Below are positions 15,700 to 63,450 of a stretch of 64,000 nucleotides of DNA, in pieces; the first letter of the stretch is position 1, and each line of letters begins with the position of its first letter. The notes below the pieces were generated by a model, which was given only the letters and a program-made list of their open reading frames with translations, searched no databases and was not told the DNA's origin. The translations under genes were made by a program, and so were the position numbers. The stretch comes from Carpediemonas membranifera BICM (taxonomy: Eukaryota > Protista > Fornicata). The stretch lies in NCBI GenBank assembly GCA_019828565.1, contig JAHDYR010000069.1:663794-727793 (forward strand), given 5' to 3'.

Positions 15700-16934
15700 G
15701 GCTATGCGCTCTCGGGTGCTCCGTTCCCGGTCCCTGATGAGTGCTGCTCCGAGTATCTGATCTCTGAGGCCTGTCTCGAACTCTCTGGGGCTTCTTCGCC
15801 ACCTGTGCTCCTCCTGTCTTCCGCTGGCGATACGTTCTCTCGCTCTCTGTTGCAGGACTCCCCCGGCTGTGAGAAAGAAAGAAAGAAATTTATGGTGCTT
15901 GGATTCTGACCCCGGACTGAGCTTGTTTCCCGTTGTCTTGGAGCTGAGTGCCCCGGGGTACTGCCTATTTCCCGTGGCAAACTGGTCAGCAGCGTTTGCC
16001 TTGGGCTTTCGGTGCTACTGTCTCCGCGGAAAGCCGATTCCAATCGCCCCAGAGGCCCTGCGGCCATCTCCGTGCAAATATGCTTTCCTGTCTCCCTGAA
16101 AGTCCGGCAACTATCCGGGGAGCCTGGGGGTCTGTCCTCGGGGCATTGATAGGCAGGATCGTCCTGCAGAACCTTGACTATGACACTCCTTGCTTCCCTG
16201 CAGTCCTTGTAGAGCCGTTCAGCCACGGCACCCTCTCGTCTGTCCGGTTCCCCAATTCCATGCCCCCTCGACTCTGTTAAGAAGCCTACCCGAAGGCGGG
16301 GAAAGTGACTAAGTCCATGCTGTCTACCCCGGTTAGGTGGCGTGGGTCAGGGCATGGGTGGTGTACCCCCAGGCACTAGGCCTGGTTGTCCTGTTACCCC
16401 TTACAACATTTCGCTTGCACTACATGTCCTTGGTTTCCCATGTCGTTAACAAGGGCGGCAGGGGCACCTGTGCCCCTCCGACCCCCGTGGCCAGTCCCTG
16501 CAGTTTCCTTGGGGTCCCAACGAGTGGTGCAACCATATGAATATGGATTTCCTTGACCTTATCCTTGCTCTGTCCTTGTTGCATGTCCTTTCTTTCTTAT
16601 TTCTGGTCTGTCCTTCCTGTTATTTCCTTGCAGTCGTTCCTTCCATTGCTTTGGTTCCTGGCTACCGGGATACGTGGGGCCTTTCCTCACTGATCCCAGG
16701 AGCTTAGCACCCAGCGAGGGTGGTCCATGGCTGATTCCTTGTCCATCCCTTCCCGGTCCTGGAGTCAGGGGTTCATGACATGCTTCTATTCCACCTTGAA
16801 GCTGTTGTAAACCTTTGCCAGTTCCCGTAGTCCTGCCGTGAGGCCTTCCCAAATGTCCTCCGAGCCCCATATTATTAGTTGCTGTAATTCTAGGATGGGT
16901 CTTTCCTGGTACCATTCACCCTGGGGGCCCTGCC

Positions 16935-24469: not shown

Positions 24470-24674
24470 CCTCACGGTTTCTGCTGGAGGGATACGATCT
24501 GCTCGCGATCGGGACGGATCAAGACCGTATCCACAATCATATCTTTCGAGATTTTCTAAATATTTTGGCCATCTTTCTCGTGTCCCCGGAATCCTGTTCT
24601 GACACACCCTGACCCAGCAGTGTCAGGGCGTGAGCCACGCCCGAGGCGTGATAGCTTACATATCGATGATATGC

Positions 24675-27600
24675 AGGGCGTGTAGCTCATGAAGTTTGCC
24701 AAAAGCGCAATCCAGGACGCTTTAGCTTCCGGAGGCGTTGTAAGCACCCTTCAAGAGCCGTCAGACGCGATTTTCGCGTTCCTCCGTGCGACTTTGCTTC
24801 GATATGTGCCGCCGTCGCTAATGCGGGAACATGCGTCGACAAGACAGCGTTTCAAACGAGCATTGTGCTCGAAGAACGTTATCTCGATGCTATTTACTGC
24901 TGATGCCAGCGCTAAGAGCAAGCGTTTCAACGTCGCCGTCGCGAACGAAATCGTGTACTTCCTGTCGCCGCTATTCAACGCTCATCCTGTCCTGTTCGAC
25001 AAAAAGGACTCCATTGACCGGATATCCGCTGGTCTGGAGCGCATCTGCCTTCACGTTGAACAGATGAAGCTTTCTCCGACATCTCTTCGTCTCCTTATTC
25101 TCAAGCTCGACACGCGAGTGCTGCTGGACTCCTCTGGCACACAGAGCGTTCTTCATGAGAGTAAAAGAGACGATTTGATCGACGAGTTGCTTTCCATGGG
25201 GTGCCCAATCAACACAATGGGCCTCCTGCCGTCGGATAGTCCGACTGATGCCAGCGGAACTCAGGCCGAACCGGTTAGTGTGCCCCAGGAGGCATCGTTG
25301 GCCGTGCCGGACTCCCCGCCGTCCGTTCCCGCCGAGTTGGCCGGGCCGGAGAATGCCTCGCCCAGCCCGTCTCAGACGAGGCCAGCCGCAGTGATTGTGC
25401 GCTCTCCGGAGCCACCACGTGCAGGCGGCCAGACATCTGAGGCGGGTGGTGCCGTTGCCCTGGTCGACAGAGTTGTAGGTGTTGAGTCACCTTACGGCAC
25501 CGGGGGCGAGGCCTCTAGTCAGGATACCTCGGCACCCACGCAACCGAGCTCGAGCTCGGACAGCAGCCCTGCTGCTGTCATCAGGAGCCACCTTTGACGA
25601 GTGGGTCCCCGACGCCATGCGCGCCGACCACTGGACCACTCCAGAGCAGGTGACGGCCACCCTGTGCGACCCAGCCCTCGTCCGGGCCCTTATGGACGAG
25701 TCCAACCGTGGGTCGGCCACGGGTCGATTCAGCCAGAGTCGGCTCCGGCAGCTCTGTGAGGCATTGAGGGGCTTTGTCCCCGAGACCGTCAGGTCGACAC
25801 TGCCAGTCCTGCCCAACGGCGGTAGGATCTTCACCAAGCTGCCCCCGGTGGTTGCCAAGATCGCCCAGGCCTGCTTCGGGTCAGTCCCGCAGCCGGCGCC
25901 CCGGGTGACCTGGGTACCTGATGGGGCCGCACGCCAGCGCAGTGTCCCCGAGCCGTTCTTGCCAGCTCACAGCGCCATGTTTGTGGGGAAGTTGCTCCCC
26001 ACGAAGAGGGCCAGACTGGCATGGGCGAAGAGCTTTGTCGCGCTGCTCAATGAGTACGCCGCAGCCCCGGCCCACGGGAAGCCCGACGTTGTCCGCCGCA
26101 TCTTGACCTTCGCGCAGGGTCTCTATGCTCCTCCGGAGCGGACCACCGAGCAGCCCCGGCTGAAAGCCAGTGCGCGCGCACTCAGGTTGGGACAACGAGG
26201 CTTCTATTCTCGCGCCACGCAAGCTCTCTCCGCCGGAGAGTTCGCTGGGGATCGCGCGTGGGTGGAGGCCAGGCTCTGTGAGAGCCAGGTGCAGCCGTCT
26301 GGTAGTCGGCTGGCAGCAGTGTCGGGTCCCGCGTCCACACTGAACCACTGCCAAATGACTGTCCCTGCGGTGAAGAAGGCACTTAAGAGCCTCAACGCCG
26401 AGTCCGCACCGGGTCCTTCAGGCCTATCTTACCTTCATCTGAAGGCGATGGGCCGGGCCATCGGGTGGAATGAACTCGCCGCGGCTCTTGTGCCCCTGCT
26501 CGAGGATATGCTCGAGGGCGTCGCCTGCCTGGAGCCATTTTCCCACTGCATCCTTGTGCCGATCCCGAAGAAGGATGGCAAGCCGCGCCCCGTCTCAATA
26601 GGCGACAGCCTTCGTCGTCTCGCAGCGAAGGTGGCAGTTCGTCAGGCTGCTGCCCGGCTGCGGGACGACAAGGCGTTGCCGGGTCAGTATGGCCTCGGCG
26701 AGAAGTGCGGGCTCGAGGAGCTAACCAATCTTGTGAGGGAGCATCATCGTGGCGGCGGTCAGGTGATCGCTTTGGATCTTACCAACGCATATGGATGCAT
26801 GAGTAGATCTCACCTTCGCGATGCGACAGCTGCATACTGCCCGTCGCTTTCCGAGTACCTCGAACTGATGTTGCTTAATCCAATGCTGTTCTCAGCAACC
26901 GGGATGGTCCTCAGATCACTCGAAGGAATTCCGCAACGGGATCCTACGAGCCCGCTGCTGTTCAGTTGCGGCATGAAGCCCCTTTTGGACGATCTTCGGA
27001 CCGAGTTTCCAAACTACGCATTTTATGCCTATCAGGATGATGTCTACTGCCTGGTGCCCAAGGACGCTACAGAGAGTGAGACGAACACGGTCATCATGAC
27101 CGCGACGTCCAATTTCGCCAGAGTCGGGTTGAAGGTCAACGAGAAGAAGACTGTCATCGCCGGGCTGGGCCTAGTGGCCAGTGAATCCTCGCTTGCGCCG
27201 CGCGGCGAGGCTTTCAAGGTCCTGGGCACGCCGGTGGGGCCGGCTGCGTACGTCAAGGAGCAGGTCTGCAGGCAGTTCGAAGGCGTCAGCGAGCAGGCTG
27301 GACGCGTGAGCGACATGGTGGCAGACGTAGGGCCCACGTCTATCATCGTCGCTAACAACATGACGCGTGCGTGCCTGCTGCCCAAACTGTCGCACCTCTA
27401 CCGCAATGTGTGCCCGACGTCCGACCTCGTCGGCGTTGGGCGTCGCTTTGAGGAGGAGACGCTCGTTCCATTGCTCTCCAACCTCGTTGGTGCCGATGCA
27501 GTGATTGGTACGCTCGAAAGAGCGGGCCTTAGCATCACGCAGGGAGGTCTTGGATGGGGAATTCCGTCCATCGTGTGGCCGGCGGCATATCTCGGTGCCG

Positions 27601-28692
27601 TGAAGCAGCTCTTTGACCAAAACATCTCACTGAACGTGCCCAATGAGGCATTTCAGGCGGTTGGTGCTGCTGGTGGTCCGCAGGACGTGGATGCCCTGAA
27701 GAAGTGGAAGACTTCGACTCCGCAGTTTGAACTGACGACGAAAGTGCGGGAGTTCAAGCAGAAGGAGCTTACGGCGAAGAGATCGTTTATTTCTGAGCCT
27801 TATGTGCGTGCAGTGTCCACATTGACGCCGTTCGATCCCGTTCTTTCGGGTTCCGATTTGGCAACTGCAATTCTCCGCCTACACCTGTCTCTTGACCCCT
27901 ACGTGATAGACAAAGCCAAACCATGCCCCCTGTGCGGCAGATCTGTTGCGGATTGGTCTCATGGACTCTCTTGTGTTCGCCTCAAGGGCGGTGCCCGGAT
28001 CGAGCGTCATAACGGCGTCAGAGACGCCATCTACGACGTTTGCTCGGAGCAGTTCGTCCCCAAACGGCGCGAGGTTCCGCTGGATCACACCAGTATGGCC
28101 TACATGCCCAACGGGACGGGCCCGACGGAGGTGAAGGCCGATCTGCTCATGCTAGCGGCAACGTCAGCTGATGGAACGCCCCTCCACGGCGATATGATCG
28201 TCGATGTGGTCGTCTCACAGTCGATCAAGGATGGGATCCGTGACAAGGCCGCTCAGTTCTCGAGGTTCGACTGCGAGCTCATCGCGGCCAGCTGTGACCT
28301 CGTTGGCAACACGAGAGCTGACCCCGAGGACCGCAAGTCGTGCTGGGTGTGGCGTCTGTGCGAGAGGCTCGGTCTGAGCGCGGAGGTCCGTCGGGACCTG
28401 CGCAGTCGGGTCGTCTTGGCTGTGTGGGCTGGGAACGCGGCGGTCATCCGTGACTACCGCGAGCAGTGCCGCGTGGCACAGCTCTAACTGTGGTGTGCCC
28501 TTCGCGTGTGAGAGAGGCGTCGTAGTCGAGCCAGTCGAGACATCCGAGATTTTTGCACATGTGCAAATTTCGATTTCCCGAAAGCGACCCCGCCGAGGCT
28601 TACGACTCCGACTACATAACCCACGAGCTCTACTAGGGACCCCCACCTGCTGACCCTCTGCGCGCGGTAAGAACGTTCTTTCAGATGATTAA
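24675..28692 (+). mobile_element. RLE-type (CRE/R2-like) non-LTR retrotransposon, tandem unit 1
   Basis: Single long ORF: SAPGPSG, RPVSIG, LDLTNAY, GIPQ(R)DP, YQDD, CPLC..H..C, RHN, KADL..IVDV. Confidence 0.9.
24689..28487 (+). pseudogene. RT-zinc knuckle-restriction-like endonuclease ORF, with +1 frameshift (~25586) and QGDP>QRDP
   Basis: Comparison with unit 2: atcaggagcc vs atcagggcc; caacgggat vs caaggggat. Confidence 0.85.
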
Positions 28693-31405
28693 AGGGCGTG
28701 TAGCTCATGAAGTTTGCCAAAAGCGCAATCCAGGACGCTTTAGCTTCCGGAGGCGTTGTAAGCACCCTTCAAGAGCCATCAGACGCGATTTTCGCGTTCC
28801 TCCGTGCGACTTTGCTTCGATATGTGCCGCCGTCGCTAATGCGGGAACATGCGTCGACAAGACAGCGTTTCAAACGAGCATTGTGCTCGAAGAACGTTAT
28901 CTCGATGCTATTTACTGCTGATGCCAGCGCTAAGAGCAAGCGTTTCAACGTCGCCGTCGCGAACGAAATCGTGTACTTCCTGTCGCCGCTATTCAACGCT
29001 CATCCTGTCCTGTTCGACAAAAAGGACTCCATTGACCGGATATCCGCTGGTCTGGAGCGCATCTGCCTTCACGTTGAACAGATGAAGCTTTCTCCGACAT
29101 CTCTTCGTCTCCTTATTCTCAAGCTCGACACGCGAGTGCTGCTGGACTCCTCTGGCACACAGAGCGTTCTTCATGAGAGTAAAAGAGACGATTTGATCGA
29201 CGAGTTGCTTTCCATGGGGTGCCCAATCAACACAATGGGCCTCCTGCCGTCGGATAGTCCGACTGATGCCAGCGGAACTCAGGCCGAACCGGTTAGTGTG
29301 CCCCAGGAGGCATCGTTGGCCGTGCCGGACTCCCCGCCGTCCGTTCCCGCCGAGTTGGCCGGGCCGGAGAATGCCTCGCCCAGCCCGTCTCAGACGAGGC
29401 CAGCCGCAGTGATTGTGCGCTCTCCGGAGCCACCACGTGCAGGCGGCCAGACATCTGAGGCGGGTGGTGCCGTTGCCCTGGTCGACAGAGTTGTAGGTGT
29501 TGAGTCACCTTACGGCACCGGGGGCGAGGCCTCTAGTCAGGATACCTCGGCACCCACGCAACCGAGCTCGAGCTCGGACAGCAGCCCTGCTGCTGTCATC
29601 AGGGCCACCTTTGACGAGTGGGTCCCCGACGCCATGCGCGCCGACCACTGGACCACTCCAGAGCAGGTGACGGCCACCCTGTGCGACCCAGCCCTCGTCC
29701 GGGCCCTTATGGACGAGTCCAACCGTGGGTCGGCCACGGGTCGATTCAGCCAGAGTCGGCTCCGGCAGCTCTGTGAGGCATTGAGGGGCTTTGTCCCCGA
29801 GACCGTCAGGTCGACACTGCCAGTCCTGCCCAACGGCGGTAGGATCTTCACCAAGCTGCCCCCGGTGGTTGCCAAGATCGCCCAGGCCTGCTTCGGGTCA
29901 GTCCCGCAGCCGGCGCCCCGGGTGACCTGGGTACCTGATGGGGCCGCACGCCAGCGCAGTGTCCCCGAGCCGTTCTTGCCAGCTCACAGCGCCATGTTTG
30001 TGGGGAAGTTGCTCCCCACGAAGAGGGCCAGACTGGCATGGGCGAAGAGCTTTGTCGCGCTGCTCAATGAGTACGCCGCAGCCCCGGCCCACGGGAAGCC
30101 CGACGTTGTCCGCCGCATCTTGACCTTCGCGCAGGGTCTCTATGCTCCTCCGGAGCGGACCACCGAGCAGCCCCGGCTGAAAGCCAGTGCGCGCGCACTC
30201 AGGTTGGGACAACGAGGCTTCTATTCTCGCGCCACGCAAGCTCTCTCCGCCGGAGAGTTCGCTGGGGATCGCGCGTGGGTGGAGGCCAGGCTCTGTGAGA
30301 GCCAGGTGCAGCCGTCTGGTAGTCGGCTGGCAGCAGTGTCGGGTCCCGCGTCCACACTGAACCACTGCCAAATGACTGTCCCTGCGGTGAAGAAGGCACT
30401 TAAGAGCCTCAACGCCGAGTCCGCACCGGGTCCTTCAGGCCTATCTTACCTTCATCTGAAGGCGATGGGCCGGGCCATCGGGTGGAATGAACTCGCCGCG
30501 GCTCTTGTGCCCCTGCTCGAGGATATGCTCGAGGGCGTCGCCTGCCTGGAGCCATTTTCCCACTGCATCCTTGTGCCGATCCCGAAGAAGGATGGCAAGC
30601 CGCGCCCCGTCTCAATAGGCGACAGCCTTCGTCGTCTCGCAGCGAAGGTGGCAGTTCGTCAGGCTGCTGCCCGGCTGCGGGACGACAAGGCGCTGCCGGG
30701 TCAGTATGGCCTCGGCGAGAAGTGCGGGCTCGAGGAGCTAACCAATCTTGTGAGGGAGCATCATCGTGGCGGCGGTCAGGTGATCGCTTTGGATCTTACC
30801 AACGCATATGGATGCATGAGTAGATCTCACCTTCGCGATGCGACAGCTGCATACTGCCCGTCGCTTTCCGAGTACCTCGAACTGATGTTGCTTAATCCAA
30901 TGCTGTTCTCAGCAACCGGGATGGTCCTCAGATCACTCGAAGGAATTCCGCAAGGGGATCCTACGAGCCCGCTGCTGTTCAGTTGCGGCATGAAGCCCCT
31001 TTTGGACGATCTTCGGACCGAGTTTCCAAACTACGCATTTTATGCCTATCAGGATGATGTCTACTGCCTGATGCCCAAGGACGCTACAGAGAGTGAGACG
31101 AACACGGTCATCATGACCGCGACGTCCAATTTCGCCAGAGTCGGGTTGAAGGTCAACGAGAAGAAGACTGTCATCGCCGGGCTGGGCCTAGTGGCCAGTG
31201 AATCCTCGCTTGCGCCGCGCGGCGAGGCTTTCAAGGTCCTGGGCACGCCGGTGGGGCCGGCTGCGTACGTCAAGGAGCAGGTCTGCAGGCAGTTCGAAGG
31301 CGTCAGCGAGCAGGCTGGACGCGTGAGCGACATGGTGGCAGACGTAGGGCCCACGTCTATCATCGTCGCTAACAACATGACGCGTGCGTGCCTGCTGCCC
31401 AAACT
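28693..31405 (+). mobile_element. RLE-type non-LTR retrotransposon, tandem unit 2, 3'-truncated by the DNA transposon
   Basis: Near-identical to unit 1 from agggcgtg to cccaaact; ORF from 28707 is open through the RT domain. Confidence 0.9.
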
Positions 31406-31480
31406 CATACTGTCCAGGGTTCAGGAATTTCCCTTATTGGGTAGGGGAATTTCCTCGGGCTTTCCCCCGAGGAAATTCCC
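31406..31480 (+). repeat. Left TIR
   Basis: Reverse complement of 48064-48138 (74/75). Confidence 0.95.
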
Positions 31481-31920: not shown

Positions 31921-33174
31921 ATGGTCTTTAAGCTCTCCGCTGCCGATTTGACGCAACTACACAAGACTAACTACAGTAATACGTACATTGCCGACATTAG
32001 CGGGGTCAAAACTGTCGTCAAGGTCGATAACTGTATGACACTTCGCCTGACACACGAAAAGACGATACTTCAGGCAATGAAAAGCCCATTTATTGTTACA
32101 ATCGTCGATGTGGGCTTTGTTGACAGCGATCAAGCGTTTGCCACTCGCTTTGTTGACCATATGTCGTGGCGAGACGTTCTGGCACTACCAGTACCGGATC
32201 AATGTCGCTACTTGCGGCACTTACTGTTAGCTCTCAGCCATGTGCATGAGAATGGATTCATCCACGGCGACATCAAGCCCGACAACTACCTTTTCAACCG
32301 AGAAGACGGTGGATTACTCATTGACTTCGGCTCTGCCATCAAAATAGAGGCTCCTACTGGGATTAACAGGTATATGGGACAAGACATGAGAGGGACACCT
32401 GGTTTTATCCCCCCCGAGCTTCGTGCCGACGAACTCAGTCGGAAATCGAAGCATTGTACAGTAGCTATGCGGGAACCACAGAATTTGAACCCCTTCCAGG
32501 CTTCCAGGAACACCACAACCAGAAACACCAACATGCACACAGTTGATGCGGCATACGACATCTTTTCCTGCGGCGTTATCGTCCTCATGATGGCATTGCG
32601 ACTGGATAAGTCTCCATTTCGATCTGTGAGAGTGGATGGTGGCAAGCCAAGTAACCCAGACGAGCATATTGGCGCTCTATATAACATGGCGTACTTCTAC
32701 GGCCGCGAAATCACGATACACAGCAAGAAGAAGAATGCAGCCCGTGGTTTGATGATCAATCCGACTCTCTGCACGAGAGGAAGCCCTCCGACACAGTATA
32801 GGAGCCTTTATGACCTTGCAATGGGGATGCTCAGCTATAATCCGGAGGATAGACCAACAGCTTTGATGTGCGCTGAACATCTCAACGATATCGCCGCCCT
32901 AGCAGCAACGTTCGCATCAACACCACTGATGATCAACGACCAGGTGACAATCTCTCAGGAAACGCTCGCTGCCGCCAAACTCACCGTTGAAGCACTTCGA
33001 GAAACCCGATTTGCTGGCCGATGCATTGCATGTGGCATGCCGGTTCACGATAATCGAACAATAACTTGCAAGACACACCACCAAGATTACAGAAGCATCA
33101 TGAACCCCCACACAAAGAGAAGAGGACGAGTTTGGAGGGTTCATCGTGATCTATCATTGATTATTGATATGTAA
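31921..33174 (+). CDS. Ser/Thr protein kinase, CDC7-like, with C-terminal Cys/His cluster
   Basis: VVK, HEK, HGDIKPDNYLF, IDFG, RGTPGFIPPE, DIFSCG, RPTA; degenerate Gly-loop; CIAC..H..C..H tail. Confidence 0.85.
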   Translation: MVFKLSAADLTQLHKTNYSNTYIADISGVKTVVKVDNCMTLRLTHEKTILQAMKSPFIVTIVDVGFVDSDQAFATRFVDHMSWRDVLALPVPDQCRYLRHLLLALSHVHENGFIHGDIKPDNYLFNREDGGLLIDFGSAIKIEAPTGINRYMGQDMRGTPGFIPPELRADELSRKSKHCTVAMREPQNLNPFQASRNTTTRNTNMHTVDAAYDIFSCGVIVLMMALRLDKSPFRSVRVDGGKPSNPDEHIGALYNMAYFYGREITIHSKKKNAARGLMINPTLCTRGSPPTQYRSLYDLAMGMLSYNPEDRPTALMCAEHLNDIAALAATFASTPLMINDQVTISQETLAAAKLTVEALRETRFAGRCIACGMPVHDNRTITCKTHHQDYRSIMNPHTKRRGRVWRVHRDLSLIIDM

Positions 33175-33284: not shown

Positions 33285-33353
33285 AAAAGAAAGAAAGAAA
33301 GAAAAGAAATTTATGGTGCTTGGATTCTGACCCCGGACTGAGCTTGTTTCCCG
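33285..33353 (-). mobile_element. 69-bp 5'-truncated copy of the LINE-like element
   Basis: Matches the 3' end at 15874-15933 including the (TTTC)n tail; 13-bp TSD tgctgcagccttg at 33272-33284 and 33354-33366. Confidence 0.92.
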
Positions 33354-33622
33354 TGCTGCAGCCTTGCGCTGGCTTTATAGACAATACCCAGTTGTTTACA
33401 CTAAAACCGAAAAATCAGTCCAGTAGACGCTCGAATCGAACTGGAGTGGGGTGGCTGTGATACAGTGTTCGTTCCTGTAGTACCCAGGCAGAAGACCCGA
33501 CCGGACGATATGGCCTGGAACTCTACCGGCAAAAAGCAGCTGGCGGCCGCTGAGGAATATGTGGAAGGCGCTTCCAGAATGATCTTTACACTACTTTCTT
33601 TGCTTCTATCTTGTACTTACTG

Positions 33623-35302
33623 TTAATCACTCTCATCATCTTTTTGTCTACTTGTGGATGACGGAGCGCCTTCCTGTATTTGCGCTTTTCTTTTGATACC
33701 CTCTGGGAGACTGACAAGTTCCGCATGGTCGTCCTGGAGCAGAATAAAGTGGGTAATGCCATGTCTGGAACAGAACACCTGGAAATTCTCACAACGATCA
33801 GCAGCTGAGTCGCCAGAAGGGTACAAACCCCAAAACTGGTGACCATGTGTGAACAATATCACTGTAGAATTATTACCGTTGTTGCACACCATGATGACAT
33901 TACGCATGTAGATCATGGAAAACTCTCGCACAGCATCATCGGTAAGCCAGCCCATCTTGGAAAACAGTTCTGCCTTAGCGGAATCCTCCGTCAGAGCCGT
34001 CCGCTTCACCCGGCTTTCCACCAGCTCGGCACGCAAAGCCATGGCTGCCTCAAGATCTGTTCTGTGGGTCGGGGTGGTCATATCCCGGAAATGGCCGTCC
34101 CTAATCATGCAACAGCAGTGCGCAACACAGCTGCCATCACGGTGTGTCGAGTATTTCCTCCATGACTTCAACCCATTCACAATTTCCTCAACGAAGGACT
34201 GTGGCTGACCGCTGGTGCCGATTGGAATCTCTTTCTTCTCAATCATATTGTTGATGTGAGACTCAATGGCCACAGATGACTCGTGTTCAGACTTGATCAA
34301 GAGCAGAGAGCGAAAGTCGACGATCTTAGCAGTGGAATCGAAGTTCGGGTACGCAGGCCGGTAAACCTTGTTAAGCAAAGGATAACAACGCGGCGGGAGT
34401 CTTGCGTCTTCCTCCGATACGATCTTCGCTTTTGCACAACCGTCAGGTCTTGCGATAATGACTCTTCGCTTCATGTACGAGAGCTTGGACATCCAGAACC
34501 AGAATTGCGCGATCTCATGGAGGTGATCTGGCTGAGTCATGATTCTGATGAGCCACGTGGCGTCATGGGCGGCAAGTTCGACGGCGGGTAGCTCATCTGG
34601 TGTCAAAAGCACCACACACCGTTGCATTGTGAACTTGAACTTGCCAGAATACAACTGAAAGATCGGCCGTGGGTCACGGGCGGAAGACTGGCAGGCGGCA
34701 ATATACACACCCATGATTCGGGCGAACTTGCAGACATGACTCTCATAATTCTTCAGAATTGCCTCGATGAAGTCGAAGGCAGTTGTCCAGATGGCTGGTA
34801 TCGTGCGGGCATCGACCACAAACCGACCATCAGAGTCCGAGTGACCAGTGATAATGAAAAAAGTCTCATAGTCACCATACAGCTTGCCGAATTCCTTGAT
34901 TTTCGCCTCAAAATCGTCCTCGTTCTCGAACTGGGCCGTCTCGATAACCGTATACTCGCTATGCATTGCCGCAAAGATCTGACGAATGCGTTCTGCGTGC
35001 CCTCCAATGGAGACAGATTCATCAATCGAAAACTGCCTGCTATCTCCAGCAACGAACCCATAGGTTGGCTCGAACACGATGAGGACACGTGTATTCTTCA
35101 GCGCCAGTGCAGTACGGGTGCACTTGTGACGTCGGGATGGCGAGGGAAAACCGACGTTGCGTGTTTCGCTACTGATGTCCCCACAGACACATTCAAACAG
35201 CTTTGATCCATCCAGATATCGATTTCTCCACCCCATTGCATTGAAAAATGTCTGATCGTCGTTCATGACGCCAATGCCAAATTGAGGGTGAGAAAATGGC
35301 AT
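33623..35302 (-). CDS. Putative caspase-like peptidase + OTU-like deubiquitinase fusion
   Basis: FFIITGHSD...VYIAACQS (His-Cys dyad); RDGSCVAH...GWLTD...RNVIMV...LLQDDHAELV (OTU-like). Confidence 0.6.
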   Translation of the reverse strand: MPFSHPQFGIGVMNDDQTFFNAMGWRNRYLDGSKLFECVCGDISSETRNVGFPSPSRRHKCTRTALALKNTRVLIVFEPTYGFVAGDSRQFSIDESVSIGGHAERIRQIFAAMHSEYTVIETAQFENEDDFEAKIKEFGKLYGDYETFFIITGHSDSDGRFVVDARTIPAIWTTAFDFIEAILKNYESHVCKFARIMGVYIAACQSSARDPRPIFQLYSGKFKFTMQRCVVLLTPDELPAVELAAHDATWLIRIMTQPDHLHEIAQFWFWMSKLSYMKRRVIIARPDGCAKAKIVSEEDARLPPRCYPLLNKVYRPAYPNFDSTAKIVDFRSLLLIKSEHESSVAIESHINNMIEKKEIPIGTSGQPQSFVEEIVNGLKSWRKYSTHRDGSCVAHCCCMIRDGHFRDMTTPTHRTDLEAAMALRAELVESRVKRTALTEDSAKAELFSKMGWLTDDAVREFSMIYMRNVIMVCNNGNNSTVILFTHGHQFWGLYPSGDSAADRCENFQVFCSRHGITHFILLQDDHAELVSLPEGIKRKAQIQEGAPSSTSRQKDDESD

Positions 35303-35364
35303 CGCACTTTAAAAGCAGCTTTATGTGAGAAATGTATTGCATATAATTCTGCATTCAGAAGACG

Positions 35365-36223
35365 ATGGCTAGAACAAAGCAAACGGCTCGCCGGCCTACG
35401 CAAGGTGGAAAGGCGCCTCGCAAGCAGTTAGCAGCGATAGCTGCGCGGAAACGAATACTTCGTCGTACCGCACCTACAAGCCGTTGTCTCAGGCCGCGTT
35501 GGAGAATTGCACGGCAGTCCTGCAAAAAGGCTGATGCTGATATCCAAGAAACTATTCTGTCGTGCATCAAGAAGACGGAGGCGCACAACTTCAAGCAGAT
35601 GGTCAAGAATTCAACACGAGCTGGTTTCCGACTTGCATTCAACACTGAGTCCGAGTCTGTCCACATGAACCCATCGAGGGAAGGACGAGGTGGCAGCGCG
35701 GGCAGAAGCTGCTTACCAATCAGCGCTGCATGCCTTCCGCAGCGTTGACCCTGAGACTGCTGCGACAGAAGATATGAAGACACTGCTTGACACCTTAGCG
35801 GTTGCTCTTGACGCAACGCCAGATGTGCCACATGCTCGCCTGGATCCTGAAGAACAGCGTCGGTTCCTGAAGCTGAAGGATACGAAGAAATTCTCCAAGT
35901 ACTGCCTTCCTCGCAGTGACGAGAAGTTTTTCTCGACCAATCTTCGCGCTGCCTTGCGCGAACACCTAGCGAAGGTGTTTCCAAACCTCCCTTGGAACAA
36001 GATTGTCTCCTGCTTCTCCCCTGAAGCGATCAATGCTGATTTCTTTATCCTGTCCACGAGCAATGCCACCTACGACGAAGCTTGCCTGACAATGCCGTCT
36101 GATGAGAGAAAGAAGCTTCGCAACCATCTTTCCATGACTGAAGAACGGCAGATTGCTCGTCAAGAGATGGAGGTTGAGATTTACCAGTTTTTAAGAGAGC
36201 TCGGTATGTTCTCTACAGTGTAA
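35365..36223 (+). CDS. Histone H3 N-tail-bearing protein (two frames: 35365-35748 and 35690-36223)
   Basis: MARTKQTARRPTQGGKAPRKQLAAIAARK matches 23 of the first 27 H3 residues with one insertion; downstream sequence is at best weakly H3-like. Confidence 0.75.
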
Positions 36224-36311: not shown

Positions 36312-37220
36312 TTAAAACAGTTTAAGGAACTCGTCCAACGTCTTCGCATTGTGCGTCATGGCCACCTTGTCCTTCTTCGTCAACCTCGATTTGGTACCCT
36401 TTCTCTTCACAGTCGTCTTCTTCTTCTTAGAAGGCTCCCAGCTCCCATTGGCGCATGCTTTTCTTAGCTTCTTCTGCTCTAATCTGTACTTCTCCTCCTC
36501 CGTCATGTCTGCTTCCTTTTTCTTTGCCTTCGCCTTCTTCTTCGACTTCATTACATCTAACTTCTTCGCCTTCTCTGCATCCTCCTGGACCACGCGAGAA
36601 ATTGAGTGCTTCACGTCCTTCGGTACATCACGATTCCTCGCATGCTTAACCACGACAAAGACATTATCGTCAGTGCCGCCACCTTCAAGGATGACCTTGT
36701 CCTTTGGGATCTTGCTGGTGGCAACCAAGAAGCAGATCGGCTTCTTATCCACCTTGAATAGGGCAAACCTGCAGTTGCCAGCAGCCGAATGATGGCAAAG
36801 CTTGTTGACGCATGCTTCATCAGGAGTCATGAGGTGCAGCTGTGACGATAGCTGAATCCGAGAAGGCTGATCGCTAAGAACACCCTTGGCAATCCCGAGC
36901 ACTTCTCCCTCATCAACATCGCCAGCCGTGACCAAACCATACATCATGTCATCGCCCTTTGACACCATGCATGTGCTGCACTTCAGAGAAATGAGCGATT
37001 GGCCGTCAAGCTCGACAATTTGGTCATCATCGAAAGGCAAGGCGTCTATCTTCATCGCGGCTTCGCCCATGTCCGCCCAATTTGCATAGACACGACGCGC
37101 AAGCTCTTCCGGAAAGCAATCGCAGCAAAAGTTGACAGTTCCACTTTCTTGCTGCATTCTACGCAGTTTATACCAGCAGTTTATACGCAGCAATGACACA
37201 GCACCAAGAGCGTGGCACAC
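36312..37220 (-). CDS. Divergent SET-domain protein with Lys-rich C-terminus
   Basis: YGLVTAGDVDEGEVLG..KG; NKLCHHSAAGNC (NHS-like); LVATSKIPKDKVI; terminal Tyr motif missing. Confidence 0.65.
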   Translation of the reverse strand: MCHALGAVSLLRINCWYKLRRMQQESGTVNFCCDCFPEELARRVYANWADMGEAAMKIDALPFDDDQIVELDGQSLISLKCSTCMVSKGDDMMYGLVTAGDVDEGEVLGIAKGVLSDQPSRIQLSSQLHLMTPDEACVNKLCHHSAAGNCRFALFKVDKKPICFLVATSKIPKDKVILEGGGTDDNVFVVVKHARNRDVPKDVKHSISRVVQEDAEKAKKLDVMKSKKKAKAKKKEADMTEEEKYRLEQKKLRKACANGSWEPSKKKKTTVKRKGTKSRLTKKDKVAMTHNAKTLDEFLKLF

Positions 37221-37328: not shown

Positions 37329-38078
37329 ATGACGAAGCCGGCTTGTCGCGACGAGAACTGGGCCATAGAACTGAAATCGGCATCCGAATATCGCGGCACG
37401 CATGGGTATTTACCCCCAGAAATGTTCAAAGTGTGTTCGTGTTCGGTCATTCCGCCGTCAACGAGCGCCATACGAGACCTCCAAGCATACGCGCATGACT
37501 GCATCGGCTCTTCCCGCCTGTTCTTCATGTCGTCACACCTGCCTCCGACATTTACTCGTGCGGTGTAGTCATTGCTCTTTTACGGTCTCCCCAAGTCCCC
37601 CTTTGCCGCGAAGGTGACTGACATGGCGCAGATCGACAACAAGAAGAAGAATAAGATGCTGAAGCTTGGTAGCTTGCTGAACTGGTGCCACTTCTATGGT
37701 GGGCAGTTGCAGTTGTCACGTAAGACACTCGAACCGCTCAGAGATTGTCTCAACTTCGTGAACGTGAACTCTGCACTACCGATTCGCGGCACAACGCCAC
37801 CCACTTGCCTCGGAATGTACGACCTGGCAATGCAGATGCTCCACTTCGACCCAACGAAGCGTCCCACTGCTGCCGAATGTCTTGACAAGCTCAAGGTCAT
37901 CATGCGCGTGCATGAATGCGTCGCCAAGCCGAGTCCGCTTCTGTTAGATGACACTGAACAGGTCTTACTCTCTGTAGATCAGCGAAAGAGAATGGTCGAC
38001 TGCTGCCAACTGGGGTCCTGGAGGAAAAGTTTAGAGATGCGATTCGAAAGGGTCGTAGCATTGAACTCGAAACCATGA
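37329..38078 (+). pseudogene. Second kinase, C-lobe fragment, paralog of 31921-33174
   Basis: YRGTHGYLPPE; KSPF; YDLAMQMLHFDPTKRPTAAEC vs YDLAMGMLSYNPEDRPTALMC. Confidence 0.75.
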
Positions 38079-39400: not shown

Positions 39401-41020
39401 ATGCTAGATATCACTATTCTACGCAGCTGGATTCGTGAGCATCATGAGAAGACCGTTAGGATTGCTTCTGCTGCACCTGGTCAAGAGCGTAAGGCTATTC
39501 GAGCAGATAAGAGTATGTTCGAGAGATGGTTCGCACTCCGGACGAATAAGAGCCGCTTGGAGCACCTCAAGGAGCACAAAGTGATAACGAAGACAGCCCT
39601 GAGATGCGCGCTGGTCGATAACATCGTCATTGACGAGATTCGTGATGTGTTTGGTCTCGCTGGCCGAGTTTCACTAATGGATCTCATCAACAAGGCTTCC
39701 CTTCCCGAGCTCATGGCCATTAGTGACGACCTTGCCCGGCCCGAGCTGTCTAAGGTTCCTGCAGGCTTGTTTATGGAGGATGATCAGGTTGAAATCGTGC
39801 GGAAGCAGTTTTTGACCACTACACCGGATCAGCGATCACCTTTGAGGATAACCGCGAGGCTGTCATGCCGTCACATCGTGGCTCTATTCATCTAGAAGGA
39901 ACAGGCCGTCTCTTTCTTCCAGATCAAGTCAACCTGATCCTTCGCGCTCTCTTCGTCGCCCCTGAGGGGCACTGTCGAGGAGCCCGCCGCGTGCATTCCC
40001 CCTACGAGGACATTCTTTCTGGTTGCAAGAATGATCCGGGAAGCGATGTGACATCAGCCCAGCTTGAGCGGTTGCGTCGAGATGTTGCCAAGGCAGCCGC
40101 CGAAGCTATTCAGGCAAGGAATGACCGCGAGGAAGCCATACACTCGCTTGAACTCGTTACTGCATCCTATGCGCAAGATACAGGGCATGCATATGTGACA
40201 CCACCCGCCAGCGACGCCGTGGAATTTTCCGACACTGACGAGGACGAGTCCGATGGCCACGCTGAACCGGCCGCCATGCAGGGTGACGGCGTTCCTTTGC
40301 CCCAGACTGATCAAGACGTCGAAGTAGAGTCCGATGTGGACGACACAGACACCGTTGGTCTCCAGACGGTTTACGATGTTGATGCAGAGGCCGATCATGA
40401 CGTCCGCGAGCCAGTGTCCCTGCTTAATCACAGCTTAGCACAGCTAGACGACACCATTGCAGGCCTTGATGATGTACCCGAGTCTGTGCGCTTGTTGGAG
40501 CAGTACGAGCCCTTGATGAAACGGCTTGCTGAGGAGAGGGGAGGCGAGGGAGGCGCTTGAACAGGCTAACAGAGATTCTGAGGAGTCCCAGAAGAGACTA
40601 GAAGCTGAGTTAGGTCAGCAGAAGGGCGAGGATCAGGCGATCCATCAGTTTACTCAAGCAGAGTTGGCACGCGCGAGTGAGGCTGGGCTTGAAGCACTCG
40701 CCGATGAACTCGAAGACAACTGGGCGGAGCTTATCAGGCGCGCCGAGGAGGCAACAATCGAGCTTGACCGCTACGTTGCTCTCGCTGCCTTGATGGAACT
40801 GTTCCAGAGGAACAATGTGGCTGGAGCTTTGTGGACTCGGATCAATAGCACCATGATGAGGTACGGGGGCCAGAAGTTCATAACGGTCCCACCCCTAGAC
40901 CTCGGTCTTACGCCTGAGATGAAGGCTATCATCGCACAGCACTCTCGAGAGAAGAAGACAAAAGCTCGTGTAACACAGGGAGAGAAGCTGGAGTTTCCCC
41001 TGGAAGGGCGTTCATGCTAG
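39401..41020 (+). CDS. Hypothetical acidic/coiled-coil protein, three overlapping frames
   Basis: Consecutive overlapping ORFs 39392-39895, 39865-40560 and 40526-41020; C-terminal part resembles 62157-63443. Confidence 0.5.
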
Positions 41021-41507: not shown

Positions 41508-42739
41508 ATGAAGCAAGTGCCGAAAAAGAAGTCTCCTGGAACCTATCGCGCGTTCACTGGTCATGATCTTACTACAAATCTTTCAAAGATCACTTTTCGG
41601 GCCATGTTGACATGCTTCTTTGTCATTGTCGATGATATCGACGTAGACAGTGGCCTCTCACTGGGAATGCCCAAAGACTCCGTGTTATCGGCCTATAACA
41701 CTGTCGTGTCGAACTTGCTTGTCCCTGTGTACGGTGGTTTTGTTGCTTTGAAGAAGAAGAACTTCAACGAGAAGGGGTTGCTAGACTGGGCGAGAGATTT
41801 GGGTTATAAGCTCGGTTACACCAAGACTAAGCCGATCATCTACCACCAGTTGACGCCGAAAGAGAAGCCTAGCGCCAAGGATCTGTCAGTTTTCATGAAG
41901 GAGATGGCGAATGTCCTCAGACTAGCCAACGCCCCTGATATGGACATCGAGAACCTGAAGAAGATGAAGTTCATCTTCCCGACAGGTCTACTTCTTGATG
42001 CCAGGCAAAGATATCACAAGCAAAGCGTGCAGACCAAAAAGGCTGAGGGGAGATGAACCCAGCTTTCCTGCGTCTCCAATCAAATCTGAGTCACTGCTCA
42101 ACGATAACAGCCTTCTTGGATCCATTAAGACTGAAAGAGATGCGAAGACTCCCGCTCGTGACTCTTCTCTGACAAATCCTTCGGTCCAACACCAAATGAT
42201 CCAGGATCTTCACCAATACGTTGTTGGTGAACGAAAGTTCGATATGGCACATCAGCAAGAGCTGAAGCGTCCTACTGCTGATGACAGTGATGACAGTGAT
42301 GTCAGCATTGCTGAGAAAGACAGGTCCGCTGATTTCTTTCGATATGTTTATGCGTCAACTAGCATTTTGCTGCGGGCATTGCACTTCCCCGGATTGGTTG
42401 GGCAATCCGGAGAACGAAACTGACTTCGCCCAGTGCGGATCATGCAACCGCTACTACCATGGGAGGTGCGTGAGGTGGCTCAGCAATGGGAAGAAGGCCA
42501 TTACCAATTTCACGTGTCCGGATTGTGCTGCTGCTTCTGAATGCACCCGCTGCAAGGCTAAGATCAAATCGTCAAAGGGAAGGGACTCTTTCTTCTGCAA
42601 CATGTGCAAATCTTGGTATTGCAAGCCATGCGGTGTGGCCATGTGGGAGACCTCGATTGATGGAACCGTTGCCAGGTTCTTATTTTGCCAGGTCTGCAAG
42701 GAAAGCCTCCTGGCACTGAATCCGAGTCTGGCATTGTGA
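41508..42739 (+). CDS. Winged-helix-like + tandem PHD/zinc-finger protein, three overlapping frames
   Basis: CCGHC..AQCGSCNRYYHGRC..FTCPDC (C4HC3) plus a second Cys cluster; N-terminus has an RFX-like pattern (MPKDSVLSAY..KPIIYHQL). Confidence 0.65.
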
Positions 42740-42951: not shown

Positions 42952-44346
42952 TCAAACAACAATTTCTGCTGGTATTGGTTTCTCATACAACGGCATCCAT
43001 GGAAGAGTTGGTGTCCACCGCAGAATATTGTTGTACGCGTACCACCGTTTGTTGAGTGGGTTGAACAGCCAGTAAGTGCTGGGGGACTTATCCATCAGTG
43101 TCACTGCATATTTTGATGCCTCAAAGCGCGCAATAGCAGGAAACCCATGCGATTGTCTCGAAACCACAGTTTGTCTGCTCCCGCCGTCTACTCGCACATA
43201 GATAAGGACGTTGTTGGGCAATAGCACAAACTTGGAAAGTGGGTACAACCTATACACCTCATGTTCGCTGCAAGGAATCGGGTTTGGGTCCAAAAATAGA
43301 GATCGGACAATGTTGGGGATGAGTCGGGATCTACCGATGAGATAGCAATCATTGCCAGATCTAACGATCATAAACCTAGACTGTGCAACAAAGATGATTG
43401 CGTCGATCCAGACAGGTGTCCTCCTGAACCCCGGATGGGCGACATCCGTCATGTCATCAGCGGGAATATGACCAGTGGTATTACCGGTGAAGAACTGGGC
43501 TGGGACTATATTCTTTGTCTTGGATGCCCGGACCGTTCCGGACAAGATAACAAGTCCAGGCACGGCCCTGATCCCTCCAAGATTGACGGGAAGTTTCACC
43601 TTAGCAAACGAAGAGAATCGGTGAGTGAGGGCCACATCGTGTCCAAACCAAGCCATCATATTAACGCCATACTCCTGAGAAGGCGCTGTAACGAGCACCC
43701 CGTGCATTGTGTGCAACATGATGTAAGTGTTGCAGTGGCAGTCAAGAACAAATCGATGCCTGCACCACAGATGCATCTTGGCAAGCTTCTCAGCTATGGC
43801 TGCGGGGAAAACCGCCTGATGGACAGATGTAACACGAGCGAACCACAAGTTGCCAATGTAGAACGCCTTGCTGGTTGAGAAGAAGAAACACTTGCCATCA
43901 GACCAGAACCGCATGATCCGGTGACGGAATGAACGATGATTGTCGTGGAAGACAAACCCACAATAATGCACGAGCTCTGATGCATCATAGCTCTTGATGA
44001 CAGTCCGATCTCTCTTAGCAACACTATGTGAAAACATGAACTTCCTGCACATGAACCAGAGAGCGCTCGAGTCACCATCGGTCACCGTCCTCAGTATGGC
44101 CCACAACGTCCCTTGTATAAGCGTGTGAAGACGGTCGGGCAGCGATTCGCCTTCGCGAAGCTGAACATCCATGCTTAGCTGTGGATGGCTTCGCAGTTTG
44201 ATGACGCGAGAGAGAATCCGGGCAACCTGCGATGCCTGATCCGAATTCTCAAGCTCTTGCGCGTGAAGACAAGCAAGCTGAAGCATGTCATCAAACGTCT
44301 CCAGGTCTTGAAAGATGTGATAGAAATGCGAACGCGCAGGGAACAT
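42952..44346 (-). CDS. Hypothetical protein, beta-rich C-terminal half
   Basis: 464-aa ORF; no motif I can name with confidence. Confidence 0.5.
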   Translation of the reverse strand: MFPARSHFYHIFQDLETFDDMLQLACLHAQELENSDQASQVARILSRVIKLRSHPQLSMDVQLREGESLPDRLHTLIQGTLWAILRTVTDGDSSALWFMCRKFMFSHSVAKRDRTVIKSYDASELVHYCGFVFHDNHRSFRHRIMRFWSDGKCFFFSTSKAFYIGNLWFARVTSVHQAVFPAAIAEKLAKMHLWCRHRFVLDCHCNTYIMLHTMHGVLVTAPSQEYGVNMMAWFGHDVALTHRFSSFAKVKLPVNLGGIRAVPGLVILSGTVRASKTKNIVPAQFFTGNTTGHIPADDMTDVAHPGFRRTPVWIDAIIFVAQSRFMIVRSGNDCYLIGRSRLIPNIVRSLFLDPNPIPCSEHEVYRLYPLSKFVLLPNNVLIYVRVDGGSRQTVVSRQSHGFPAIARFEASKYAVTLMDKSPSTYWLFNPLNKRWYAYNNILRWTPTLPWMPLYEKPIPAEIVV

Positions 44347-44600: not shown

Positions 44601-47170
44601 ATGCATATCTCCACACAAGCTACTTTGGTCATCTGGAGAATGACACCTTACGGTAACATTCTAGCACCATCAAGCGTTTCCGCCGTCAATGTCATTCTAG
44701 CAAACGTTTACACCTCGATCCAAGGACACCACGCTAATGGCATGGATCGACGGTTCCGTCAATGCGATAAGGATTCGCGTTCGTTGTTCAAGGCTGTCTT
44801 GCTATCTCTAACTGATGGTGATATTGACAAGAGCATTCTTGATCCTGTCTTTGTTTCCTTGCTTGATGGTAATACGGATCGTTTTCGACGTAACATATGT
44901 GCTACTGTCAGAGAGTACACACCAACATGGTCCCATGCCTTCTCACCTGCGTCGGACGAGAGAGATAGCTTGTGCGAGGACAACCACCTGCTACTCGAGA
45001 AGATTGAGAACACCGAGCATGCATTTCAGTTCGCAATGGCGCTCAAGCGGATCACTGAAGGTGTCAATGTCGTTGATGATGAGGTTACTGTCTTTAACGC
45101 GATCGCCAAAAGGCTGGGTATCCAGACCATGAAGTTTGATGTCTCACATTATGCTCTCAAAGACCTTGGGTGTGATATTAGGAACGTGTTCGGAGTGAAA
45201 GAAGCCATGAAAGATCACGAGGCAGATTTTTTCGAGAGTCTTGTACCAGACGAGATACACTGTTCGCACAACACGTTTCGTTATGATCAAAACAACCAGA
45301 AGTTCCCTCTCGAACATACGACACGTTTCCCAATTGCAGCTGACGCAATAGGCTCCTTGCCGGTTCCGGTCAACAACTACTTACATGATGGAACGCACAT
45401 TACTATCTTCTTCAACAGCGAAGATGAACGAGATCAATGTGTCTCCATGCTTTCCCACCTCAACCCCACCAAGTTGAAAAGCGATCGGTGGGCCTTTGTC
45501 AAGTCGGTTAAGTATAACATTTCCAGCCGTATTGCACGAGGCATTCAGTCACCACAGTATCTCGAGACAGCCAGAGATATTTGGTATGATACAACGACAC
45601 ATGTTAGCAGAGAAGCGCGTGTTGAAGCTAGCTACATTCCAGTTGACATTCTCATCTGGTTTGATGCATGGCGAGGGACTACGACCGCTGTCAAATTCAG
45701 GCTGATTGACATGACAGGAGAGGTCTTTCCGCAGAGAGTGACATCACCATTCAGACTGCTTGAGTACCAGGGAAAGGAGGATCTTTTTGCCAACATACTT
45801 TGAGTATATTCAGTCTAACGTGGAAGAGGCAATCCAGAAGTCATTCCAAGTGCGAGAAACTGGAAGGTGGGCAAGAATCAACAGAGTATTGCTGATTGGT
45901 GACCACCCTGCCATGTCGACAGTTGTGGGCTCGCTGCAAGGAGGGCATTATCCATCGCCTTTCCAATCGAATAGTAAGCGAAACATGGGTTGGATGCCGT
46001 TTGGCGCCACGTTCCGGACCACACTTCAGCACGTCCTCCAAGCCAAAGAAGGTAGTATTGCTGAATCTACATCGGGTATTCCAGATCCTGCCGCGCACTG
46101 GGGCAGCTTTCTCCCTGGCGACTGACCGAAGGCGTTCGTTGGAATACAGAAGAAGAAGGTTACGTCAAACTCTCTTTGAGGGATCGTCGATTGCTCCTGA
46201 CAGTGTGTTTCTTATCCCCCAATCATGCACTGTTGCCATCATTTCATGGGTCAGGTGGCCCTAATGGCGGGAATGTTCAAACCGCGGAATGACGGCTCAC
46301 GAGAAGAGAACGCTCAGTGGGGACGTTATCTGCAATCTATCCAAGATTTCAAACCGCCAGATCGTACAACTGGGTGTAATGAGCATATGTTAGGCCGCAG
46401 GTTGATGGCCAACATGGCAACGACGTACTATCATGCGTTTCCTGTCTCTGTTCAGTCCATCTTCAGACTAATGGGATATCTTTTCTCCCATTATTACTCA
46501 ACTGCGACAGTGACGGAAGATATCGTGTGGTGGCATCGAGTTGCTGCACTGTTGGTCCACTTACTCCATGTAAGCCTCTCCTTGGTCACTGATAAGCCCA
46601 TCCCGGTTCCCACACCATCCGAGGCAAAATCAATGCGGCCATTCACTCAGACGCTATATAGCAATGCAATTGTCGCAACCATTCCCGAGATACAAGCCGC
46701 AACAATGCTTCCTTTTGGTGTCATCATTGAGGAGTACTTCGAGAGAGACTTCATTGGCAACCAGGATGCTCGTGTACATTTGAGGGAGGAACACAGTTCT
46801 GCAGCAAGTTATTCTGAGAGAACAAGCGGAGATGTTCTATCGGTTCCTGCGCGGTCCTGTATCTTATGGTCGACGTGAGGGCCACGTACCACTTCTTTCC
46901 CCTCTGATCAGCCTCCGAGTACACAAATGTTGCAAAGATCACGCTCAATGGATTCGTATTCAACAGGATATGACAGAAACGTTGCCAAAGTCTGATGTCA
47001 ACGATCTGAATAGAAAATTCGAGCAGAACGTCGCTCATTTGTGGGAAAGCATGCTGAGACGAGCGCGAAAGTCATGGAACAATGAAGACTGGCTGTTTAT
47101 CAAGGTTCGGGATGATCGTGAGAACGGTGTTCGTCTTGACGTGTGTCTATGCAGAGAAGGCTGTCCATAA
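44601..47170 (+). pseudogene. CMC (CACTA/EnSpm-Mirage-Chapaev)-like DDE transposase, frameshifted
   Basis: Motifs in the expected order across frames: ILIWFDAW (D1), VLLIGDHPAM..V.G..GGH (D2), FRTT..H, MH...MG, EEYFER (E). Confidence 0.7.
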
Positions 47171-48063
47171 ATCGTAGTTGTATTTAGCGGGGGAGACAAT
47201 AATCAACCACACGCCCGACCAAGCAGGAAAGTGACGCCCCTGGGATTGACGGGGAAACCCCGCATATTCCGGCAGCAAAACTTCGCTGAAACGGAACCAC
47301 ATAATTACTTGACTGATTTTTGGATCTTAGAGAAGACTTGACGCGCATAAACTCAGGTTGATCGTCAAGATCTCCGAAAGGAACGCAACTGCTGCCTAAA
47401 TCACCTTTTATCATTATTAGTCGGTTCAGCTTTTTTCTCGCAAGTCCGTCATCATTTCGTGACATAATCCGCGGGATCCGTAGCGAACGATGACTCCTCG
47501 GAAAAAAACACATAGTTGTGCTCTACACTTGACCTACATTCCAAATATTCACTTTGTTCTTTCCAACGGCTCAGTTTTGTCATGCGTTGACCGACCAAGA
47601 ATGTGAGCGTACACTGACACTATTGGTTGCATGATGTGAAACATCGTGTATTGCGTACATGAACAAAGTTTTAAGCTGTTATGACTCGTATTCGTTGAGA
47701 TATGGCTGTTTGTTCATACGCCTAAAAATGCACACATGGTCAAATCTGTCGAAACAAAAAAGAATTGGGAATATCTCGGGAATGACACGTTGCCGTTTTT
47801 CAAAAAATCGGGCAAGCCCAACGAATGATAGTATGGGATCGCCTGCATCATTTGCAAAAAACGGCAACGTGTCAATCTCTAGATATCGCCAATTCTGCAT
47901 AAAAACTTTTTTTTGCAAGGCATAGAACTCTACACTGTGAGCACTAGTGTATTAGTGCTTGCAGAAGCGGTTACTTGAGTCGATGAAGTATACGCACATG
48001 ACATAATTAATTAAAACAGTTTAATATTGAGTGAGCCACCAGGAATTTCCCTTATCCAATCAG

Positions 48064-48138
48064 GGGAATTTCCTCGGGGGAAAGCCCGAGGAAATTCCCC
48101 TACCCAATAAGGGAAATTCCTGCACCCTGGACAGTATG
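48064..48138 (-). repeat. Right TIR (within an 81-bp palindrome, 48041-48121)
   Basis: Reverse complement of 31406-31480. Confidence 0.95.
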
Positions 48139-63443: not shown

Positions 63444-63450
63444 AGAAGAA

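Follow-up and report, generated by a model that had tools for sequence, protein, structure and literature searches.

The 127-aa open reading frame at 35365-35748 (+) of the window (by which we mean the whole 64,000-nucleotide stretch of Carpediemonas membranifera DNA analyzed here) begins as histone H3 and continues as something else, and the question it raises is whether it encodes a histone variant, a drifting histone fragment, or a non-histone protein that carries an H3 tail. The preliminary description of this locus offered both an H3 tail mimic and an extreme H3 variant. Of the two labels "tail mimic" is the one that fits: the tail scores far above shuffled sequence, and no histone fold can be detected downstream of it. 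Coordinates of the gene, its neighbors, and the element in which they lie are collected in Table 1.

Table 1. Features of the inverted-repeat-bounded element and of the H3-tail gene, in window coordinates
Feature	Position	Strand	Basis
Left terminal inverted repeat, starts CATAC	31406..31480	+	74/75 nt complementary to right arm
Protein kinase, 417 aa, frame intact	31921..33174	+	Pfam Pkinase E 1.1e-22
559-aa protein, caspase/CHAT-like fold at about residues 66-300	33623..35302	-	Atlas structure rows
62-bp AT-rich spacer between two head-to-head starts	35303..35364	.	sequence
H3 tail copy, H3 residues 1-28 with the changes given in the text	35365..35454	+	alignment to H3
Non-histone body part 1, basic stretch directly after tail	35455..35669	+	coding-like periodicity in tail's frame, not other two
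+1 frame step at or near CCC run	35670..35672	+	best switch 35669-35677, Viterbi 35670
Non-histone body part 2, 184 open codons, predicted all-helical, orphan	35669..36223	+	codon periodicity, structure prediction
SET-like protein, 281 aa, lysine-rich C-terminus	36312..37157	-	Pfam SET
Second kinase, C-lobe fragment, several frames	37329..38078	+	33% identity over 129 aa to first kinase, E 1.8e-13
Gene without assigned family, three frames	39401..41020	+	frame analysis
PHD-finger gene, three frames	41508..42739	+	Pfam PHD E 3.4e-5
464-aa gene without assigned family, frame intact	42952..44346	-	frame analysis
Putative CACTA/CMCT-type DDE transposase, five pieces	44601..47170	+	frame analysis
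Right terminal inverted repeat, ends GTATG	48064..48138	-	pairs with left arm

The N-terminus is a copy of the H3 tail

Identity to canonical H3 extends over 23 of 29 aligned positions at the N-terminus of the ORF; residues 1-30 match solved H3 chains (best E 2.6e-5), and local scores against 37 fetched H3 proteins average 104.3, compared with 28.5 ± 4.0 for shuffled sequences, none of which (0 of 300) reached it. Relative to canonical H3, a reference that may not correspond to the host's own H3, the tail retains K4, K14, K18, and K27 and differs by K9R, S10P, a Q inserted after T11, T22A, K23I, and S28R; the retained lysines and four of these changes (K9R, S10P, K23I, and S28R) had been recognized correctly before, and the inserted Q and T22A had been overlooked. 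The alignment of the tail to H3 contains no equivalent of K36. Both ARKS motifs (K9-S10 and K27-S28) are broken, the surroundings of K4 and of K14/K18 are intact, and the tail together with the residues right after it is very basic in composition. Three of the 5 tail substitutions hit the four ARKS lysine and serine sites, a clustering with a post hoc p of 0.012, or of 0.049 (also post hoc) if S28 is left out. We wish to stress that K9R on its own is not rare and should not be over-read: R9 is found in 5 of 41 H3 tails from viral contigs, any ARK[ST] motif is absent in 6 of those 41, and K9R or loss of ARK[ST] also occurs in 42 of 54 hits of a query-biased set.

Two reading frames, probably one gene

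The preliminary description overlooked that the tail ORF and the ORF downstream are likely to be one gene; codon periodicity indicates a single gene with one frame step and a joined length of ~285 aa. Frames were called with a 3-periodic Markov model for which eight further ORFs of the element served as training set; the coding signal stays in the tail's frame as far as about 35669 and then passes to the +1 frame, where it continues to 36220. In the body, the two proposed frames score +0.12 and +0.07 bits per codon and the remaining frames -0.56 to -0.63; for comparison, leave-one-out scoring of the 8 element ORFs gave -0.05 to +0.09 where the frame was the true one and -0.35 to -0.72 where it was not. 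The tail is less clearly resolved by the model, at -0.09 bits per codon and close to one other frame.

Such steps recur in the element: the Viterbi path places 7 in 4 genes, 5 of the 7 being +1, and none in four other element genes. Homopolymers of at least 3 nucleotides lie in 9/9 step windows versus 147/243 background windows, and homopolymers of at least 4 in 5/9 versus 40/243, the step windows in both comparisons being hand-chosen and of unequal length. Among near-identical repeat copies of the window, 2 internal single-base sites differ, versus 14 substitutions over ~7.1 kb, and possible GT..AG pairs are present around the frame step. The step could represent an assembly error, a real or late mutation, or a short intron. 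In the protein collection the 127-aa product is annotated, as a cluster of one, and the 149-aa downstream ORF is absent. A published assembly of the species, which may or may not be the source of the window, is described as nanopore reads polished with short reads (PMC8516963).

The body after the tail has no detectable histone fold

An H3 profile matches the tail frame only, over residues 1-44, and Pfam Histone (PF00125) finds no match in the gene. Residues 30-102 score 26.0 against H3, a value reached by 58 of 300 shuffles (23.7 ± 3.0), and hhalign of a 28-sequence H3 alignment against the two body pieces returns probabilities of 0.07% and 0.08%. In a frameshift-aware alignment to the histone core, 31, 31, and 29 of 40 shuffles did as well as the real sequence at three penalties; at the laxest penalty 2 of 40 did so, and the real alignment then needed six frame steps. 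No histone appears among the 10 structure rows of the Atlas model (pTM 0.20, low confidence), and the Atlas feature hits are short H3-like clusters, all under 0.9. Co-folding of the two body pieces with H4 from locus L026 scored 0.02, a result with no bearing either way. The model of body part 2 is itself of low confidence (pLDDT 57), and fold searches with it found nothing at E<=0.001, the best match being to generic helical repeats (Z 6.8).

We considered and rejected a histone fold spread across frames: H3-like words can be made out by eye in two other frames, one of them in exact register, but shuffles and periodicity are both against it. The faint echoes of the fold reported earlier (IKK..FKQMVK, AEAAY) do not survive these comparisons, since their scores are at the level of shuffles and, judged by periodicity, those in other frames are non-coding. 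The "about 150 unrelated residues" said to follow are real coding sequence, but they start earlier than supposed, in a frame that is open from 35669. As neither profile, shuffle, nor hhalign tests detect a histone fold, the histone-variant reading loses its footing, and the protein is most simply viewed as something other than a nucleosomal variant. Nor does it resemble CenH3/CenpA, which would combine an unrelated tail with a histone fold having a long loop 1; here the tail is canonical-like and the fold undetected.

Relatives of the gene

No homolog of the body was found among 305 candidates (0/305), and a further search produced one match among 1.84 billion, a repeat and apparently spurious. 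Two candidate homologs were judged to be chance: the tandem-repeat protein P0069 (E 1.4e-4), and locus L001, with 37% identity over 52 aa, which had been picked by an exact 8-residue pattern and is flanked by stops. The longer relatives of the 127-aa ORF comprise 12 hits, each matching via H3-like sequence, and of 41 loci on viral contigs 38 have the full H3 fold and none is related to the gene beyond H3.

H3 tails on other proteins came to light in the same searches. Five environmental proteins (P0076, P0077, P0078, P0079, and P0081) have a near-perfect H3 tail with K9R followed by a vWA domain; a U-box (PF04564) is listed for four of the five, which could represent a family of H3-tail-bearing ubiquitin ligases. 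P0074 combines an H3 tail with K9R and a tyrosine recombinase domain (Pfam E 4.9e-18), and may be a chimera or a mobile-element protein. A contig from a giant-virus bin (L023:3001-3435) encodes a 145-aa ORF in which an H3 tail occurs without the histone fold.

The gene lies in a 16.7-kb inverted-repeat element

The preliminary description placed the gene beside a SET-like gene, but overlooked that it is cargo of an element bounded by inverted repeats. The element measures 16,733 bp, has 75-bp inverted repeats with CA..TG ends, and forms a lower-GC island (48.7% versus 60.7% and 54.7%); within the window the sequence that starts the inverted repeats is found at the two ends only. Its left end truncates a CRE-like LINE copy at 31405. 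A target-site duplication is absent, the flanks ending in AACT and beginning with GGGG, and the two flanks are not continuous with each other; later rearrangement may account for the missing duplication. With no target-site duplication, non-continuous flanks, and several broken cargo genes, this copy of the element may be dead. On sequence grounds it is likely to be a CACTA-type (CMCT) DNA transposon: CA..TG is given as the CMCT terminus in a source that defines CMCT elements with a target-site duplication of 2-5 bp (PMC12730594).

The surroundings consist of nested Ty3, DIRS/Ngaro-like, and LINE elements (labels from translations, with an RVT_1 hit). For two proteins encoded in the window, the other members of their sequence clusters carry the name Carpediemonas membranifera. 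Several DIRS/Ngaro-like elements with overlapping reverse transcriptase and tyrosine-recombinase frames occupy 2281-24674, some of them duplicated at 99.6-99.9% identity. Two CRE-like LINE copies (24665-27388 and 28684-31405) stand in tandem and are 99.7% identical, a single extra base at 25586 splitting the ORF of one. A 63-bp stretch of spacer (33292-33354) recurs, 98% identical, at 15872-15933, 17 kb upstream among the retroelements; Rfam returned 0 matches across the window, this repeat included. Just inside the right end of the element is a 40-bp inverted repeat (47761-47896), and each terminal repeat contains a palindrome; these are possible binding sites. A second low-GC island (59200-64000), with palindromes at 59492-59604, is possibly another cargo element. 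Two genes lie in it, a zinc-finger relative of the PHD gene (E 0.002) and one coding for 421 aa, and each has near-identical copies on other contigs.

Neighboring cargo genes

The head-to-head neighbor of the tail gene, with which it likely shares a promoter in the spacer between them, encodes the 559-aa protein with the predicted caspase/CHAT-like fold. Its Atlas rows fall in CHAT, Peptidase_C14, and DUF6642 clusters with TM by target of 0.54-0.80 (single-domain rows), all of them below the bar for naming a family, and it has no Pfam match. His154 and Cys204 form a candidate catalytic dyad, and we take Cys392 and His526, in the C-terminal part, to be a possible OTU-like motif.

On the other side, the "SET-like gene" of the preliminary description does show weak similarity to SET, but this lies under the curated Pfam cut-off (E 0.11 for the whole protein, 0.032 trimmed), and neither the NHS nor the Tyr motif is intact. 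SETD8 accounts for 13 of 17 rows against the PDB (best E 0.24). In that alignment the Asn of NHS is replaced by His122 and the Tyr at the alignment end by Glu158, and the Tyr next in the SETD8 motif would presumably fall on a Gly; the fold model has a pLDDT of 33. With His at the NHS Asn and Glu at the aligned Tyr, the protein is likely to be catalytically impaired and a poor methyltransferase, and methylation of the tail by its neighbor, an experiment suggested earlier, is for the same reason doubtful.

The putative transposase matched nothing in the libraries searched, Pfam among them. CMCT elements are expected to encode a DDE transposase with C(2)C and H(3-4)H motifs; by eye, the pieces contain candidate acidic motifs and an MH motif, and a C(2)C motif was not seen. 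Its assignment as a CACTA/CMCT-type DDE transposase, made from such motifs, is therefore putative.

A proposed tail for activating marks only, and its alternatives

We are confident, if short of certain, of the anatomy of gene and element set out above. Granted the anatomy, we consider the chances of the following mechanism to be evenly balanced, and the reading as a whole is therefore tentative, with somewhat less than an even chance of being right: the gene, a passenger of the 16.7-kb inverted-repeat-bounded element, would encode an H3 tail on a non-histone body, and the tail would be one for activating marks only. Specifically, i) the frame step would be a single-base error or late mutation, so that the working gene is one ORF; ii) the body would tether the protein to element DNA or to another cargo protein; iii) the free N-terminal tail would gain K4 methylation and K14/K18 acetylation and recruit their readers; iv) loss of both ARKS motifs would have removed the sites of chromodomain binding and mitotic phosphorylation; and v) the tail, acting with the kinase, PHD, SET-like, and protease-like proteins that the element also carries, would keep chromatin open at the element.

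Published background, so far as the source covers it, agrees with the proposed division of marks: methylated ARKS/T recruits HP1-like proteins, S10 and S28 are mitotic phosphorylation sites, and K4me3 and K9/K14 acetylation mark active nuclei, in Trichomonas too (PMC2939574). A tail that served to divert silencers should have retained K9, so we infer that this one is better read as bait for activators. The earlier suggestion that it might bait K27 readers or writers is weakened because the K27 motif has lost its S28 and because E(z) is reported to be absent from all studied metamonads (10.1101/2021.07.16.452543).

Four other explanations have to be weighed. First, the element could have captured a piece of a host H3 gene (transduplication) that came to form, in frame, the beginning of a cargo gene and is now drifting in a dying copy. 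This we regard as unlikely, though a serious contender: H3 capture by DNA transposons has been published, with drift or inactivation suggested in the accounts available (PMC3538342; PMC6710886), and the broken neighbors, the absent target-site duplication, and the single copy seen are all in keeping with it. Against drift, the tail provides the start codon for ~285 coding-like codons with no in-frame stop except at the one step, similarity to H3 stops at the tail boundary, and the terminal repeats are 74/75 identical.

Second, the tail may have been retained chiefly for nuclear import, or as a basic tether to chromatin, in which case its modification sites would be irrelevant and K9R a conservative change. 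Importins bind H3 tails, the basic charge of the tail and adjoining residues would suit this role, and K9R tails are carried by unrelated vWA and integrase-like proteins as well (6 of 12 hits); however, residues 1-8 and 12-21 are retained near-exactly, beyond what charge would need, and S10P and K23I reduce the likeness to H3 without a charge rationale, so that we judge this explanation improbable.

Third, and more improbable still, the protein could be a soluble decoy that titrates the K4 readers or writers of the host, or a substrate or regulator of the element's protease-like, kinase, and PHD proteins. The head-to-head arrangement with the caspase/CHAT-fold gene, 62 bp away, would favor such a function, as would the action of viral tail mimics, for example influenza NS1, on K4-type machinery according to the source at hand (PMC11738798); but titration of activators would bring no obvious benefit to a transposon, and no silencing lysine motif remains with which to bait silencers.

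Finally, that the protein is a nucleosomal H3 variant, extremely diverged and extended at its C-terminus, is very improbable despite the helices after the tail, BLAST alignments some of which reach residue 101 at 36-40% identity, the rarity of equal shuffles (2/40) at the laxest frameshift penalty, and the divergent H3 variants reported in this species (PMC8516963), since similarity after the tail is within the range of shuffles, Pfam Histone has no match, the Atlas model (pTM 0.20) has no histone in its 10 structure rows, and the other-frame echoes are non-coding.

Known systems and significance

The closest published counterparts of the gene are the H3L genes borne by hAT elements in Pyrenophora tritici-repentis and Pseudocercospora fijiensis, which, as described in the sources consulted, are likewise H3-derived genes with altered tails between DNA-transposon terminal inverted repeats; they differ in being multi-copy and in keeping the histone fold (PF00125), whereas residues 1-28 only are joined here to an orphan body, and they differ also in element type and host (PMC3538342; PMC6710886). 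Other giant or cargo-bearing elements carry chromatin genes: giant CMCT/Plavaka transposons of the red alga Bostrychia, 17.4-19.1 kb long, have SET and methylase cargo (10.1101/2025.02.11.637652), and fungal transposons carrying TET/JBP and HarbingerS/MuDR elements carrying SET are also on record (PMC12730594). The chromatin-cargo giants share with the present element its size, CA..TG ends, and several chromatin-related passengers, among them kinase and SET or SET-like genes, but the portions of these reports available to us describe neither an H3-tail fusion nor caspase-fold cargo; and unlike CMCT/Plavaka transposons, the present element has no target-site duplication and a transposase that is only putative.

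The proposed logic, in which an element-encoded protein keeps its own element active, is that of the VANC anti-silencing proteins of Arabidopsis VANDAL elements as outlined in the material seen, except that VANC acts on DNA methylation and not via a histone tail; a sequence relation to the present protein is not expected. Influenza NS1 (with a K4-like motif) and SARS-CoV-2 ORF8 are also non-histone proteins of genetic parasites with H3-tail-like sequence, but these viral mimics, in the account at hand (PMC11738798), are short motifs, whereas the present tail has 28 residues, forms a true N-terminus, and is clearly descended from H3. Viral histone mimicry is already known, as are whole H3 genes and chromatin enzymes as transposon cargo; for a full-length H3 tail grafted onto a non-histone transposon protein our literature search found no precedent, nor any transposon-borne tail-only H3 fusion.

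The genome paper, in the part available, lists for Carpediemonas membranifera, besides a canonical H3 and a candidate CenpA, other H3 variants that are divergent and in part incomplete (PMC8516963). The present ORF may already be among these divergent variants, and, as a caution, short proteins annotated as "divergent H3 variants" in genomes of this kind could turn out to be frame-broken transposon cargo. At its most general, the present reading would mean that giant DNA transposons of free-living fornicates encode a new anti-silencing system, consisting of a "portable histone tail" for activating marks only, displayed by a protein directed to DNA or to the element, and a co-expressed caspase-fold protease that might clip silenced host tails, a generalization that we offer as speculation and think unlikely. 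If the tail is under selection, it would show, as an experiment of nature, which tail residues are kept by a genetic parasite (K4, K14, and K18) and which are dropped (both ARKS motifs), and it would provide an entry point to transposon silencing in metamonads, a group reported to lack E(z).
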